Below, piece after piece: positions 2,075 to 7,245 of a stretch of 64,000 bases of DNA. Numbering within the stretch: the stretch's first letter is position 1; each line of letters starts with the position of its first letter. This DNA is from Thermococcus sp. JdFR-02 (GTDB lineage: Archaea > Methanobacteriota_B > Thermococci > Thermococcales > Thermococcaceae): positions 32,001 through 96,000 of the forward strand of contig MTLP01000012.1 of the NCBI GenBank assembly GCA_002009975.1, given 5' to 3'. Under the pieces are notes generated by a model. The model saw only the letters and a program-made list of their open reading frames with translations. It ran no database searches and was not told the origin of the DNA. Made by a program: the position numbers and the translations under genes.

Positions 2075-3505
2075 GACATGCTTAACGACATATGGTATCT
2101 TTTTTGCAACTTCCAAAGCTGTGAAATTTTCTCCCTTCTCTTCTTTAACCATATCGCCAGCGAGTCCATTTAAGAAAGCACCAACACTTGCGGCTCTTAA
2201 GGGACTGTTTCCTAAGGCTAAGAGAGAAACAATTACTCCAGCTAAAACATCACCAGTTCCCCCTGTGGTCATTCCTCTGTTGCCCGTTTTGTTGTACTTC
2301 CACTCTTCTCCATCGCTTATTATATCATAAGCTCCTTTGAGCAAGATTGTGCCGTTGATTTCTCTCGCCTTCTTGGTGACGAGCTTTGCTTTTTCCTCCA
2401 AGCTCCCCTCAGGCTTTTCACCAAAAAGTATTTTAAATTCCCCAGCATGTGGAGTCAAAACAAAAGTTTTACCCCTTAAAACGCTCAAGTCCTCAGCTAC
2501 GGCTTTTAATCCGTCAGCATCAATGACCATTGGCTTCTTGCAGTGCTTAACGAATTCTCTTACAAATTCTTTGGTCTCCCCACTCAATCCAATTCCCATT
2601 CCAATTGCTACGGCATCAGCCTTTTCTGCTAAAGCCAAGACTTCCTCTAGGAGCTCTTTTGAGAAGTTCTTACCCCTAACGGGTCTCAAAATTAAGTCTG
2701 GGTCGTTTATTCTCCTCGCACTTTCTTCAGGCATTGCTAGATAAACAAGATCAACTAAATAGGAAGCAGCTTTTGAAGCTAAATAAGGTGCCCCAAAGTA
2801 GTTCTCGCTTCCTCCGATTATCAAAACTTTGCCATTTTGACCCTTATGCTCTCCCTTTTTCCTTAAAGCAAACTTTGCATCCCCCGGACCGACTAAGTAA
2901 TAGAGCTCCTTTGGATAGCCAATCTTTGCTATTATCCTTTCAAAACCTTCGTATTCCTCTTTGTCCCATTGGAAAGTTACTGCAAAATCGCAATTTACCC
3001 TAACGCTCGAGGGATAGCCGCTCGGCAGATCAACACTAACTATCTTAGCTTTTCCGGCATATTCATTGATTTTCTTAACAGCGCTCCTTATTGGCTCTCT
3101 CGGCTCTCCCTTAGTTCCCGCGCCGAGTAAAGCATCAACTATAACATCAAAACCTTTCAAATCCAGAGCTTTTATTTGACTTGAGTCTTTAAGAACTTTA
3201 ATCTTTACAAAATCGAGCTTCTTGAGAATTTCCCAGTTATGCTTTGCCTCCTCACTTCTGATTTTCACCTCATCGCCGACTAAAAAGAGGGTCACATCGT
3301 TTTCAAAGCTCAAGTGCCTCGCTATTACAAAGCCGTCTCCGCCGTTGTTGCCTGTTCCGCAGAAAATCACCACTTTTAAGTTTTTTCCAAACTTCTCCTC
3401 AATTATCCTCGCCACACCCGCACCGGCATTTTCCATCAATTGAAAAGGTGAAATACTAAGCCACTTAGCGTTTATATCCCAAATGTAAACATCCTCAATT
3501 TTCAT
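2063..3505 (-). CDS. nnr: Bifunctional NAD(P)HX epimerase/dehydratase
   Basis: YjeF_N motifs LMENAG, GNNGGDG and VDLPSG, plus kinase-like HKGQNG, LTPHAGEF and GGTGDVLAG. RBS GGTGGTG precedes ATG 3505. Confidence 0.92.
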   Translation of the reverse strand: MKIEDVYIWDINAKWLSISPFQLMENAGAGVARIIEEKFGKNLKVVIFCGTGNNGGDGFVIARHLSFENDVTLFLVGDEVKIRSEEAKHNWEILKKLDFVKIKVLKDSSQIKALDLKGFDVIVDALLGAGTKGEPREPIRSAVKKINEYAGKAKIVSVDLPSGYPSSVRVNCDFAVTFQWDKEEYEGFERIIAKIGYPKELYYLVGPGDAKFALRKKGEHKGQNGKVLIIGGSENYFGAPYLASKAASYLVDLVYLAMPEESARRINDPDLILRPVRGKNFSKELLEEVLALAEKADAVAIGMGIGLSGETKEFVREFVKHCKKPMVIDADGLKAVAEDLSVLRGKTFVLTPHAGEFKILFGEKPEGSLEEKAKLVTKKAREINGTILLKGAYDIISDGEEWKYNKTGNRGMTTGGTGDVLAGVIVSLLALGNSPLRAASVGAFLNGLAGDMVKEEKGENFTALEVAKKIPYVVKHVLEF

Positions 3506-3562
3506 GAACACCACCGTTAAAAATTTAAAAAAGAAAAGGTTAAAAGATTTAGCCAATGGAAC

Positions 3563-3865
3563 TTAAAGAACAATTCTCTTAAATGATCTGTAGTCCAAAA
3601 ACTTCCCAATAAGTATGAACGCAGAACCCAAGAGAATCATCAGACCAAGCAGGCATAAATTCTTTCGCTTTTTGGAATTATAATTTCGAAAAGTTGCTAC
3701 TGCTGTTAGAAAGCTCAACATTGCTCCAATTCGAAAGTATGCGAATTATATAGTTATTTCGTCTCTGTAGAGAAAGTACACCGCCCTAAATAATGTAGCT
3801 CCTAGACAATAACCCAAGTTCTCCTTTCCTATAATCGAGGCTATTACTATTCCAAAGAAGGTGTT
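3563..3865 (-). pseudogene. Decayed small multi-TM membrane protein gene
   Basis: Hand translation: NTFFGIVIASIIGKENLGYCLGATLFRAVYFLYRDEITI*FAYFRIGAMLSFLTAVATFRNYNSKKRKNLCLLGLMILLGSAFILIGKFLDYRSFKRIVL*. One internal TAA (3746-3748); RBS GGTGA at 3873-3877 has no in-frame start codon after it. Confidence 0.5.
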
Positions 3866-4039
3866 TTAAATATCACCACTTTTTGTCTTTCAGGTCCTTA
3901 GAAAGACCGAGTTCAAGGCAAAGTTATCAACAGTCCCGTCAATATAATATAGTTGAGAACTTTTAAGTTAATGATAAAGTTAGCTAGTCCAAATTACAAG
4001 AAGGAAGAGAAAGTATAGGAAGGCCTTTTTCATGTTTCA

Positions 4040-4939
4040 TCACCTAATTAAAGTTAGATTTTGGAAGATTAAAGTATAATTCATGTTTTCCGAAATTATG
4101 GAAAATCTAACGGGTAGTAAGTCTTCTTTCCTTATGAGAAGCATAATAGTAGAGTTGCTTTCAATTGTAGATAATCTATAAAAATCATGATATTCCTCAA
4201 GAGTCAAGTTTACATTCTTGAAATATGAGAAAATGTTTTGGAGATTAATGTCTTCTATGTGCTCACATGACATGATGTTCGTATGGATATCTTTTTTGTC
4301 ACTATTACTCCCATTGTATAGGATAACTGATGTTCCATTACAAGTCAAAATTTCTCCAGAGGGGATATCCTGAATTTTAAAAAGATTTGGCTTCTTAAAA
4401 AGATATAGATAAACACTAGACTCAGTATTGTTTAGAATGGATGTTGTTTCATGTATTATGGCCTTATATCCCTGAGCTTTTTCAAATTTTACAGTCATTT
4501 GAGTAAGGAGTGTTTTGGAGTTTAAACTTGTTTCATGGATAGATATAACTACTACAATAGCCAGCAAAATAACCCCCATAGCATATATTGCAAGAATCTT
4601 TTTAGGCATCTTGATATGCTTAGAGGATGCGTAATAAAGAAACATTACTCCGTTAAAAATTAAAAGCTTTAAAGAGATATCCTTTAGAGGAAAGCCCAAA
4701 TAGTAGTTACGGGTTAACAAGAGAAAAGAGACTAAAATCAGATATAAAGAAAAATTTTCAGGCTTTTGTTTGATCTCACTAAGGGAATTAAAAAACAGAT
4801 GAAGTAACAATAACGCCGTGATTATTCCAAGAGTTAATGAAAACATGAGGTTGAACTTTTCGATTTTCCTAAAATAAGCGTCAATGGAAAAGAGCAAAAA
4901 ACCAAGAATAACCAGAAAACCTCTAACTTCTTTTTTCAT
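4040..4939 (-). CDS. Membrane protein (about 4-5 TM) with C-terminal LolA-like extracellular domain
   Basis: Hydrophobic N-terminal ~135 aa, then YLYLFKKPNLFKIQDIPSGEILTCNGTSVILYN...MLLIRKEDLLPVRFSII..YTLIFQNL, reminiscent of the LolA/DUF2092 fold. Many N-x-S/T sequons. Confidence 0.65.
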   Translation of the reverse strand: MKKEVRGFLVILGFLLFSIDAYFRKIEKFNLMFSLTLGIITALLLLHLFFNSLSEIKQKPENFSLYLILVSFLLLTRNYYLGFPLKDISLKLLIFNGVMFLYYASSKHIKMPKKILAIYAMGVILLAIVVVISIHETSLNSKTLLTQMTVKFEKAQGYKAIIHETTSILNNTESSVYLYLFKKPNLFKIQDIPSGEILTCNGTSVILYNGSNSDKKDIHTNIMSCEHIEDINLQNIFSYFKNVNLTLEEYHDFYRLSTIESNSTIMLLIRKEDLLPVRFSIISENMNYTLIFQNLTLIR

Positions 4940-5129
4940 TTAACCATCTCCTAAACCATACTCGCGGAGGGATTGTTAGGATAGTGATAACAAGTGTTAT
5001 AACAAAAACCATGTAAGCTGGGACATTTAATCTCCCAGATTTCCATAAGTTACCCACTACAATAAAAATAATAAAATAAAGAGGTATTGAACGCCCAATT
5101 TCTTGTTTAACAATTATATCCATACCCAT
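4923..5129 (-). CDS. 68-aa two-TM protein, candidate immunity protein
   Basis: RBS GGAGGT lies between the upstream stop and the ATG. Two hydrophobic helices and a basic tail; overlaps the next gene by 17 bp. Confidence 0.6.
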   Translation of the reverse strand: MGMDIIVKQEIGRSIPLYFIIFIVVGNLWKSGRLNVPAYMVFVITLVITILTIPPRVWFRRWLNEKRS

Positions 5130-5136
5130 ACCTCCA

Positions 5137-5826
5137 TTAAGAGAAATAACACTGCCCCATACAGTATCCTAAATCAGCCCCTAGACATATTGCACACGCT
5201 AAACATCCAACTCCAGTTGCAATACAAGTGGGACAGATATACACTAAGCAATCTAAACAATATCCTGTTGTACATTCCTGAAGCATACACCCTACAACAC
5301 ATTCCCAAAAGCCATCATCACTAGTTACATGAATTTGGCCATTTTCGGCAGTTGCTATTAACTCAATGTTTCCATTCTTATCAAGAGAATAGAACTCTAT
5401 TTTGCCAACACTATCCCCAGATAATGTCATCGTATACTTAACGGGCTTAATTTTGTTTGAAAGATAAACTACTACTGAAGACACTCTTACTCCTTCTTTG
5501 CTTTTCTCATATCCTATGGGAAATACTGCAAATGTTGCACTCTTTCCAGAAGAGGTTGAAATTTTGTAAACTTTTGCATTTTTTATTAACAGCGAAGGAA
5601 GCAAATTTGTATTTGCAATTAGTTTTTTAAGTTCATGTGAGTTAACTGCACTAGAGAGAAGCACATACTTTTGAATTCCAGTGATTTCTTCTAACCTCAG
5701 CTTTTCTTTAGTATATACACAGGTTTTTGGTTTTGCAATTTGCTGTTCTGCTAGTACTGGAGCTGCAATCATCCCCAAAATCAAGACTAAAACAAATAAC
5801 GAACCTAACATCATTTTTCGATTCAT
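5137..5826 (-). CDS. Secreted precursor with Cys-rich C-terminal peptide (halocin C8-like archaeocin precursor)
   Basis: Signal peptide MNRKMMLGSLFVLVLILGMIAAPVLA, Lys-rich pro-domain, then C-terminal 61 aa with 12 Cys. RBS GAGTGA precedes ATG 5826 (ORF track start 5862). Confidence 0.75.
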   Translation of the reverse strand: MNRKMMLGSLFVLVLILGMIAAPVLAEQQIAKPKTCVYTKEKLRLEEITGIQKYVLLSSAVNSHELKKLIANTNLLPSLLIKNAKVYKISTSSGKSATFAVFPIGYEKSKEGVRVSSVVVYLSNKIKPVKYTMTLSGDSVGKIEFYSLDKNGNIELIATAENGQIHVTSDDGFWECVVGCMLQECTTGYCLDCLVYICPTCIATGVGCLACAICLGADLGYCMGQCYFS

Positions 5827-6285
5827 AGGTAGGTCACTCGATAAACAATAAACAAAAAACAAATAAATATTTTTCGTAAACCAAAAGTTAAAGAAATCAA
5901 TAAGAGTTTGAGTAAATTTTTAATTCAAAGCAATTATTTTTATGTCTTTGAAATACTCAACATCACAATCGATTAAATAACATGTGTTACTGCCCTTAAT
6001 TTGACTTTTATTAGTGCTATTTTTAATTATAATCAATATCAAAAAGCTTGATATTACCTTACCACCCGTATTTTACTGTGATGAAAAGAAGGGGAAAATC
6101 TTAGTCCTGCTTTTTATTTTTGTTATTCTCGTCATAAGCCTTGATTTTAATGATAAAAACCACCAATTCATGTTGGAACTCGAAAAACAGACTCCTCAAA
6201 AATTTGTGCGTTCAACCAAAGTCACCCTTAAAAGAAGCTAAAAGAATTCATATCAAACAATACAATCTTCACAAACCCTCACCTC

Positions 6286-6396
6286 TTAGAGCAATTTCCA
6301 AGTTCTCAATGCAATGATGATAAATAACAGCATTGAAATTAATAGGAAAAGATACGAGTATGCTGTGCTCACCTTGGGAAATAAAATATAGCAGTT
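6286..6396 (-). pseudogene. C-terminal fragment of a membrane protein gene
   Basis: Hand translation NCYILFPKVSTAYSYLFLLISMLLFIIIALRTWKLL*, bounded upstream by an in-frame TAG. It is followed by RBS GAGGTGAGG and a GTG that stops after 11 codons. Confidence 0.35.
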
Positions 6397-6672
6397 CTAT
6401 TGTCTTTAAGAGGAGGATGCTGGATAGACATTAAAATTTACAAAGATGGGGAATCACTTGTGAATTATGAACAGTTCTATGTGCTGTTTCAGATAAGCTC
6501 TACCTGCATGAGCATAGAATCCAAAGATGTGAAGTTTTTGGATGAAAATAAAACACCTTTAGTTTACTATGCATTGTTCTTAACCCAAGAACATCTCAGA
6601 GTTAAACATTTTCGGTAGCACTTCTGGACAAGTGTGTAATTTAATAAACTTTTTTACTCCCTCAATCAACAA

Positions 6673-7245
6673 TTACTCTAAAACTTTCAAAGCCCTCTCA
6701 TAATCCGCCCTTGAATAAAGCACAAGATAAACTTCTTTAACACTCTCAGCTTCCCTTGAAAACTCTTCCACAACTTCAATAAAAGTTTTAACAACCTCTT
6801 CCAGTGGACATCCATAGATGCCGGCACTTATGGCTGGAAATGCAATTGAAGAAATGTTTAGCTCTTCAGCTTTTCTTAATGGCCCGATTAACGCTTTTCT
6901 AAGCTTCTCCTTTAAGCTCCCATTCCATTTTCCACCACAATAAGGCCCAACCGTGTGGATAACGTATTTTATTCCAGAGCGCTCCATGTTTAAAGCGGGT
7001 GTAACAACGACTTCACCGTGCTCAATGTAATTTCTCCCAATCTGCTCTCTCATAGCCTCTTTGCTGATTTTGATGTATTCGTAAGGGTCTCCAGCTGCAG
7101 CTTTAGCAATGGCTAAAGCTACTCCTCCACCGTGCTCCAAATATTTGTTTGCCGCATTAACTATCGCCTCCGCTGGAAACCTAGTTATGTCTCCTTGGGC
7201 GAGCTTAAAAGTTAAATTTCTAAAGGTAAGTTCTTTTAAAATCAT
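6673..7245 (-). CDS. Macrodomain protein (ADP-ribose-binding/hydrolase, AF1521-like)
   Basis: GDIT, AIVNAAN..L.HGGGVALAI, VIHTVGP and FPAISAGIYG. RBS GAGGTGAG precedes ATG 7245. Confidence 0.9.
   Translation of the reverse strand: MILKELTFRNLTFKLAQGDITRFPAEAIVNAANKYLEHGGGVALAIAKAAAGDPYEYIKISKEAMREQIGRNYIEHGEVVVTPALNMERSGIKYVIHTVGPYCGGKWNGSLKEKLRKALIGPLRKAEELNISSIAFPAISAGIYGCPLEEVVKTFIEVVEEFSREAESVKEVYLVLYSRADYERALKVLE

Follow-up and report, generated by a model that had tools for sequence, protein, structure and literature searches.

Only a handful of archaeocins have been defined at the molecular level, all of them haloarchaeal, according to a recent preprint (bioRxiv 10.64898/2026.07.27.741052). 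The preprint, citing Sun et al. (2005), describes the halocin C8 precursor ProC8 as an N-terminal HalI part joined to the C-terminal halocin C8, with release of the tail and an immunity role of the N-terminal part both reported; Makarova et al. (2019) are reported to place halocins C8 and S8 in one superfamily. The halocin C8 domain is represented by the model TIGR04449 (curated cut-off 24 bits), a name confirmed by the preprint's methods. Here we compare with this system a locus of Thermococcus sp. JdFR-02, contained in a stretch of 64,000 nucleotides (contig MTLP01000012.1, positions 32,001 to 96,000 of the forward strand) that is called the window in the following and to whose first letter as position 1 the coordinates refer. 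In the window, the gene of a secreted, cysteine-rich precursor, P0001, is followed by two genes encoding membrane proteins, P0002 and P0003. A preliminary description of the DNA had interpreted P0001 as a halocin C8-like precursor; the downstream membrane-protein genes and the inserted island that contains all three genes were absent from it. We consider it fairly probable that the three genes constitute a horizontally acquired toxin-immunity cassette for a ribosomally made, unmodified, cysteine-rich archaeocin.

The precursor gene (5137..5826, minus strand) starts with the ATG at 5826 and is open throughout its 229 codons, which are followed by a stop codon. Its product consists of a signal peptide, a pro-region and a cysteine-rich, hydrophobic module at the very C-terminal end. 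The signal peptide (residues 1-26; 5749..5826, minus strand) was delimited by sequence and hydropathy, with cleavage presumably occurring between VLA and EQQ. R3 and K4 are its sole basic residues, they precede a long hydrophobic core, and inspection of the N-terminal sequence revealed no twin-arginine (Tat) motif; the signal is of the Sec type. The basic pro-region (residues 27-168; 5323..5748, minus strand), recognized by its composition and by the secondary structure of an AlphaFold2 (AF2) model, comprises 142 residues with 18 lysines, two arginines, a single cysteine (C36) and a computed isoelectric point (pI) of 9.5. The C-terminal module, designated the FW tail (residues 169-229; 5140..5322, minus strand; composition and AF2), is acidic and hydrophobic. 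Its 61 residues include neither lysine nor arginine, the computed pI is ~4.05 and the grand average of hydropathy +0.92, and the stretch 190-224 equals a membrane span in hydrophobicity. Cysteine makes up 21% of the tail, with 12 residues distributed over 51 positions from C176 to C226; CxxxC occurs at 176-180 and again at 222-226, and CPTC and CLAC, six residues apart, flank GVG (205-207). On all these points the preliminary description was accurate: the Sec-type signal ending in VLA, the Lys-rich region of ~140 residues with one cysteine, the 12 cysteines in 51 residues without Lys or Arg, CxxxC at both ends and CxxC-x6-CxxC around a central turn. Since P0001 is joint top in cysteines per 51-residue window among the 2,834 open reading frames (ORFs) of at least 100 amino acids in a genome in which cysteine accounts for 0.68% of residues (ORFs of at least 150 amino acids), its cysteine density is not due to chance.

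The AF2 model of P0001, calculated with a 17-row family alignment, has a mean predicted local distance difference test score (pLDDT) of 82.5 and a predicted template modeling score (pTM) of 0.77. The signal region is disordered and a seven-stranded alpha/beta domain spans residues 44-167; it is followed by the three helices of the tail (172-187, 189-204 and 208-228; block-mean pLDDT 84-95), along which the cysteines are spaced at i/i+3/i+4/i+7. Because homologues exist and the model is confident, P0001 is regarded as a real gene. The tail had earlier been pictured as a nested hairpin. The turn at GVG 205-207 reappears in the model, but a second turn at G188 renders the tail a three-helix unit rather than a two-armed hairpin. 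Foldseek retrieved no match to the model in the PDB at E<=1e-3, and a sequence profile search of the PDB yielded nothing under E 0.5. The best hit of the wide VIA-align comparison had a Z score of 5.8 (rmsd 4.2, 136 aligned) and many START/Bet v 1-type rows scored 4-5; because such Z scores fall inside the stated noise range, no fold is assigned.

A search with TIGR04449, the check proposed in the preliminary description, left the FW tail unmatched. By hmmscan, there was no hit to P0001 at E<=10, seven relatives of P0001 likewise remained without a match, and nothing was obtained at E<=10 when all 2.36 Mb of the genome were searched in six frames. The same search was able to detect the domain: of 97 genomes of the taxonomic family, 6 had a match above the cut-off, and the Haloferax volcanii control was positive. 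When 10 FW tails were compared with 11 TIGR04449 tails by hhalign, the shallow alignments gave a probability of 0.2% (E 0.26). The TIGR04449 tails of this analysis begin just after an acidic stretch and open with C-xx-C, whereas the FW tail opens with FW-x-C-xxx-C. Judged by these comparisons, the FW tail is not a halocin C8 domain and belongs to a tail family distinct from TIGR04449. In the 2026 preprint, halocin C8 homologues were defined by TIGR04449, and P0001 would for this reason have been missed.

Kinship with halocin C8-type precursors resides instead in the pro-region. Comparisons of pro-regions by hhalign were run on shallow alignments (2-18 rows). With signal peptides removed, the family of the window matched four TIGR04449-bearing proteins of its own taxonomic family with a probability of 87% (E 4e-6), five TIGR04449-bearing methanogen proteins with 88.5% (E 3e-6) and the two proteins of loci L081/L086 with 81%. 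A pooled 18-row profile matched the N-regions of ten haloarchaeal TIGR04449 precursors with 85% (E 6e-6). In a sample of 401 genomes from the phylum of the Archaeoglobus genome discussed below, the HMMER family profile A3 recognized the N-terminal part of seven ORFs in six genomes. The E values, calculated per genome, lie between 1e-8 and 1e-16 and include the signal peptide, and the C-terminal part of all seven ORFs lies above the TIGR04449 cut-off. A further link is provided by another precursor encoded in the genome of the window, on contig C35 (4611-5507, minus strand, 298 amino acids), which has another cysteine-rich tail. Its pro-region bridges the groups, as hhalign assigns it probabilities of 95.8% with the window family, 97.7% with the methanogen proteins and 93.3% with the haloarchaeal ones (up to 98.4% overall); its hydrophobic tail is related neither to the FW tail nor to the TIGR04449 tails, and a multi-span membrane ORF follows directly. 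Homology of the P0001 pro-region with the N-terminal part of TIGR04449-bearing precursors is probable, but not proven. P0001 would then belong to the halocin C8-type precursor superfamily by its scaffold and not by its tail, and of the original designation the kinship of the N-region (hhalign 81-88%) stands while the assignment of the tail does not. Within the 401 genomes, the A3 pro-region profile is represented in 29 and TIGR04449 in 22, with partial overlap; profile searches thus show that TIGR04449 used on its own would miss most of the superfamily.

Not all cysteine-rich precursors of the wider group share this scaffold. The N-region of the window and the type-A N-region of the sister genus g4 exhibit no similarity (hhalign 0.2%). 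In the genera g5 and g6 (loci L006-L009, L013 and L036), secreted proteins of 236-256 amino acids carry 14-19 cysteines in their last 90 residues and small membrane ORFs lie downstream; L006 is interrupted by a TAG codon. The window N-region matches the g5/g6 type with a probability of 15% once the signal peptides are removed, and full-length matches therefore rest partly on the signal peptide. Two other cysteine-rich ORFs were observed in the genome of the window (G000), one of 978 amino acids on contig C22 that is cysteine-dense with repeated C-x3-C units, and one of 396 amino acids on contig C21 that ends in a cysteine-rich segment.

Genus g4, a member of the same family as the window, provides examples of tail exchange. 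Its type-A pro-regions are 65-86% identical between TIGR04449-tailed and FW-tailed proteins, as opposed to 12-23% identity between the two classes of tails; its FW-type tails align to P0001 residues 168-228 with E values of 8e-8 to 1.5e-5. At the nucleotide level, an identity of ~77-79% extends from the upstream region through the pro-region, ends at the junction and returns 0.85-1.4 kb farther on. The junction consists of the codons for MD directly before GFW, and the boundary between pro-region and tail in P0001, near D170-G172, aligns with it. The exchanged block encompasses the tail and the small membrane-protein genes behind it, such that each tail class is accompanied by its own set. In one locus (L024 of genome G072, oriented 2216-2710), a complete TIGR04449-tailed type-A gene is followed by an orphan 3' copy that lacks a promoter and encodes the last ~85 residues of the pro-region and a third kind of cysteine-rich tail.

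The gene downstream of the precursor encodes P0002 (4923..5123, minus strand), 66 amino acids from the second ATG, which is proposed, on comparative grounds and by structure prediction, to be the cognate immunity protein or partner of the tail. It is composed of two hydrophobic helices and a basic end. The ORF caller placed the start at 5129; homologues begin at MD, and the ATG at 5123, 13 nt past the precursor stop codon, is preceded at a distance of 6 nt by GGAGGT. Named members of the family in the databases are all annotated as 'hypothetical protein [Thermococcus sp.]'. A hidden Markov model detected a P0002 homologue downstream of the FW tail, on the same strand, in 10 of 11 distinct places, namely the window, L045, the Archaeoglobus locus, three g4 loci and four methanogen loci, the eleventh (L062) being a broken fragment; among the 35 loci fetched for TIGR04449 tails there was none at E<=1e-3. 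This contrast is taken as an indication and not as a statistic because the genomes are related and the flanks of the loci extend only ~1.5 kb. A complex of the FW tail (169-229) with P0002 was predicted with a score of 0.76, compared with 0.01 for the best of three controls. Of 80 solved complexes, 58 attain the mark used for such scores, as do 2 of 110 mismatched pairs; these counts are a rough guide here as the alignments were custom-made. At least 98% of the contacts recur between runs, and the partner has a pLDDT of at least 83. The contacts connect tail residues 170-215 with P0002 residues 9-42, including residues 178, 181-182, 194 and 215 of the tail and 16, 19, 22-23 and 38 of P0002. 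Binding of the FW tail by P0002 is thus a prediction of the structural model and not a measurement, and we know of no comparable complex. In two loci (L010 of G083, and L012 of G078, 1483-2467), a P0002 homologue is present and the stretch fetched contains no FW gene; the homologue is 61% identical, has a truncated end and is preceded by genes for a 90-residue secreted protein, whose signal peptide is similar to that of P0001, and a 173-residue membrane protein. This homologue may be an orphan immunity gene.

The third gene of the cassette overlaps that of P0002 by 17 nt and encodes P0003 (4040..4939, minus strand), a membrane protein of 299 amino acids characterized by its composition and its homologues. 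The N-terminal half is helical and hydrophobic, and the C-terminal ~150 residues contain seven of the eight N-x-S/T sequons. Its AF2 model has a pLDDT of 46 and provides no usable fold, and searches of P0001-P0003 against Pfam and NCBIfam gave sub-threshold noise only. A P0003 homologue occupies the same position in locus L043 of an Archaeoglobus sp. metagenome-assembled genome (MAG; 36% identical, E 5e-58), and hhalign relates the N-terminal part of P0003 to the product of the ORF that is second downstream of the precursor in the FW cassettes of g4 (81.5%, E 1e-5). The order of the three genes is also found in the Archaeoglobus MAG (47% identity) and in one metagenome contig. In four methanogen loci (L047-L050 of G303, G252, G233 and G107), the FW-tail gene is separated from the P0002-like gene by a LolA-like gene. 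The product of the LolA-like gene has the Cys-containing, lipobox-like signal of a lipoprotein and matches Pfam LolA_like with 38 bits in L049, above the cut-off, and 29.2 bits in L047, just below it; the P0002-like part in these loci is the N-terminus of a longer membrane protein (open frames of 118-221 codons). A resemblance of the C-terminal half of P0003 to the methanogen LolA-like proteins (hhalign 10%, blastp E 0.003-0.017) is suggestive only.

Homologues of P0001 are few and patchily distributed. P0004, from a metagenome contig, is 80% identical, P0005 and P0027 are ~47% identical, and the family continues in methanogens. Among 1.84 billion representative sequences, 20 matches were obtained, six of which are short relatives; a profile search resulted in 14 strong matches including the query, the named ones from Methanoculleus, Methanomicrobiales and Methanosarcina MAGs. 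No function is annotated for the relatives in any source searched. In a 15-row alignment, from which P0033 (a different C-terminus) and P0005 (frameshifted) were omitted, the pro-region cysteine C36 is invariant (15 of 15 rows), eight tail cysteines (C176, C185, C190, C193, C201, C208, C214 and C226) are retained in 13-15 rows, and C180, C198, C211 and C222 vary, being kept in 2-9 rows. The number of tail cysteines in the family ranges from 8 to 16. The precursor copy of the Archaeoglobus sp. MAG (L043) is 47% identical to P0001; in L043, L044 and L046 the frame of the tail changes (~840-905 of L043), with the conserved end motif in the other frame, which reflects either a pseudogene or an assembly error. 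A link to RHS/YD proteins was examined and dismissed: 13 large proteins match only residues ~121-182, the two that were scanned are Ig-like repeat proteins, with the repeat-protein matches falling on residues 131-162, and the matches are read as a shared beta-hairpin motif. P0033 (347 amino acids) and the protein of L059 (G388, 421 amino acids) possess the same kind of pro-region with long C-termini that are not cysteine-rich, so that the cargo of the scaffold is not limited to cysteine-rich tails.

The cassette is located in a low-GC insert of ~3.2 kb (3516..6677), defined by GC content and comparison, that comprises the three genes, the AT-rich stretch upstream of them and a 52-residue ORF (3563-3721). 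The GC content is 0.30-0.36 inside the island and 0.40-0.43 in the flanks; the left border was placed by alignment, and the ends bear only short direct repeats of low identity. In three of 12 genomes of the same family that were compared, the flanking genes are separated by 11 bp (G002), 40 bp (G090) and 219 bp (G095). Since the flanking pair is nearly adjoining elsewhere, the 3.2-kb block is either an insertion or marks a variable site. In the AT-rich stretch (5863-6672, 810 bp) upstream of the precursor gene, all ORFs are short and lack support, and the precursor ATG is preceded at ~35-45 nt by a TATA-like AT run; no Rfam match was obtained in the island, this stretch included, and no RNA sequencing run was listed as containing the island. 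A tblastn search of plasmid records found no match. The direct neighbors of the island encode an NAD(P)HX repair enzyme and a Macro protein, with an amidohydrolase and a PAC2 protein beyond. Domain scans of the ORFs in the island and of four genes that flank it revealed no modifying enzyme (LanB/C/M, radical S-adenosylmethionine), and the earlier statement that none is adjacent has been borne out. The listed TTG start of the NAD(P)HX repair gene is at 3556; conservation with the nearest relative begins at an internal ATG (residue 18, ~3505), judged the likelier start from the alignment. Of the sampled words of the island, 0.90 (window 3500-6700) recurred in a marine metagenome run from a study other than that of the likely source sample, and 0.43 and 0.21 in two further runs.

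A mechanism can be proposed that builds on the anatomy of the precursor, its family, the tail exchange, the co-inheritance of tails and membrane-protein genes, the island, the predicted fold and the predicted binding, and from which we infer secretion, cleavage, disulfide formation, killing and immunity. The precursor would be exported by the Sec pathway, and the basic alpha/beta pro-region would keep the acidic, hydrophobic three-helix tail soluble and inactive. Cleavage in the acidic, Asp-rich stretch ahead of FW would free a tail of ~58-61 residues; modules are exchanged in this stretch, and the TIGR04449 tails of this analysis also begin after an acidic one. The preliminary description had put the putative cleavage near VTS/DDG and the peptide was presumed there to be thermostable. 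Inter-helix disulfides would staple the tail; four conserved pairs would make up their core, and P0001 could have as many as six. The tail would act on the cell envelope or the membrane of archaeal competitors. P0002 would bind the tail and thereby protect the producer, with P0003 assisting.

Several observations weigh against a secreted archaeocin with its own immunity gene. The tail fails both the halocin C8 model and the profile comparison, so that homology of the active part gives no ground for transferring activity to it. The kinship of the pro-regions relies on remote-homology probabilities that are mostly below 90% and stem from alignments of 2-18 rows, the A3 matches to TIGR04449-tailed ORFs include the signal peptide, and the comparison with six N-regions of the canonical, Tat-signal haloarchaeal type was null (hhalign 0.4%). 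Domain scans revealed no protease, ATP-binding cassette exporter or regulator in the island or the flanking genes. The mature protein contains 13 cysteines, an odd number, and extracellular disulfide formation is assumed although the organisms are anaerobic. The relatedness of the genomes and the short flanks cause the distribution of P0002 homologues between FW and TIGR04449 loci to overstate the contrast, and the predictor may dock two hydrophobic helical chains whether they bind or not.

The predicted binding and the lack of a nearby protease gene would also suit a precursor that is never cleaved, in which the tail, docked permanently on P0002/P0003 in the membrane, would fix the alpha/beta domain to the cell surface and so serve, for instance, adhesion or the upkeep of the envelope. 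A tail that between residues 190 and 224 is as hydrophobic as a membrane span, that is predicted to pack on the two helices of P0002 and whose gene is co-inherited with those of both membrane proteins is what such an envelope complex would display. However, in relatives the same pro-region bears true halocin C8 domains, and the preprint describes this domain as a bacteriocin that is released. Cassette exchange and the orphan 3' cassette are typical of conflict systems, the patchy distribution and the island location suit a conflict system better, and the single-chain model places the tail in the confident part of a soluble protein (pTM 0.77). We regard a permanent envelope complex as unlikely.

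Alternatively, the freed tail could be sensed without being lethal and serve kin recognition or signaling, with P0002/P0003 as receptor or sensor. Polymorphic tail types with matched membrane partners, the predicted tail-P0002 binding and the P0002 homologue that has no FW gene beside it in the loci fetched from two genomes would agree with such a function. Yet no kinase, regulator or signaling domain was found in P0002, P0003 or the neighboring proteins, and the nearest characterized relatives by scaffold are bacteriocins, which makes a signaling role quite improbable. A metal- or cluster-binding domain, either metallothionein-like or a structural site on a secreted protein, is suggested by the 21% cysteine of the tail and by its CxxC and CxxxC spacings. 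Against it stand the variability of 4 of the 12 tail cysteines (2-9 of 15 rows) and of the cysteine number in the family (8-16), the absence of His partners from the tail and of any match to a metal-binding family in Pfam or NCBIfam, and the i/i+3/i+4/i+7 spacing on three predicted helices, which suits inter-helix disulfides; metal binding is in our view very improbable indeed. The toxin-immunity cassette remains the interpretation that we prefer.

Literature searches on halocin C8 and on archaeocins in Thermococcales yielded no description of the FW tail family or of the immunity pair. Part of the picture may already be in print, such as non-C8 tails on HalI-like regions in Makarova et al. 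(2019). In a wider interpretation, to which we assign slightly less than an even chance, halocin C8 is one of at least four unrelated cysteine-rich tail families (TIGR04449, FW, the C35/L058 type and the g5/g6 type) that are borne by shared pro-region scaffolds and exchanged together with matched membrane immunity genes. The HalI-like scaffold of the window would then span its own family, Archaeoglobi, methanogens and haloarchaea, and no archaeocin-immunity pair of hyperthermophilic anaerobic archaea would have been defined before the FW tail and its 66-residue binder. More boldly, the Asp-rich junction could be cut at the growth temperature without a dedicated protease. The locus offers a compact three-gene system from a vent-type archaeon, with a peptide of ~6 kDa and a predicted binder of 66 residues, and tail swapping on a shared scaffold is a natural experiment. 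If the interpretation is true, warfare by ribosomal peptides extends to hyperthermophiles, new tails should be sought by the pro-region and not by the tail, and a source of very stable, disulfide-rich, membrane-active peptides becomes available.

Among known systems, the lanthipeptides and sactipeptides differ from P0001 in that a tailoring enzyme is encoded beside the precursor of these ribosomally synthesized and post-translationally modified peptides; beside P0001 there is none. A lead is provided by a protein language model, whose nearest cluster to P0001 is named 'putative immunity protein/bacteriocin domain-containing protein' (score 0.92, 190 of 256 features shared) and contains proteins of 261 amino acids. 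It points to the Gram-positive C8-like proteins (PF27906, Gpos_C8-like), but PF27906 is present in only 17% of the members of the cluster. The halocin C8 precursor and P0001 are alike in being secreted proteins of 200-400 amino acids, with N-terminal parts that appear to be remotely homologous, a hydrophobic, cysteine-rich C-terminal module of 60-76 residues after an acidic stretch, and no modifying enzymes. They differ in the tail, which in P0001 contains 12 cysteines, is without a TIGR04449 match and cannot be aligned by profile; in the signal, which has RR motifs in haloarchaeal examples and is of the Sec type in P0001; and in the neighboring genes. According to the preprint, halocin C8 is accompanied by the halR/halT transporter and regulator genes, which are absent beside P0001, whereas P0001 has dedicated downstream membrane proteins that co-vary with the tail. 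This last trait recalls the polymorphic toxins of the contact-dependent inhibition (CDI)/Rhs type. The modules here are small, cysteine-rich hydrophobic peptides instead of enzymes, and RHS/YD or filamentous delivery parts are lacking. Orphan cassettes, a feature of polymorphic toxin loci, have a likeness in the 3' copy of L024, the window containing none. What the superfamily has in common with the CDI/Rhs-type systems is a conserved N-terminal part that receives exchangeable C-terminal modules, and a small cognate gene immediately downstream that is exchanged with the module.

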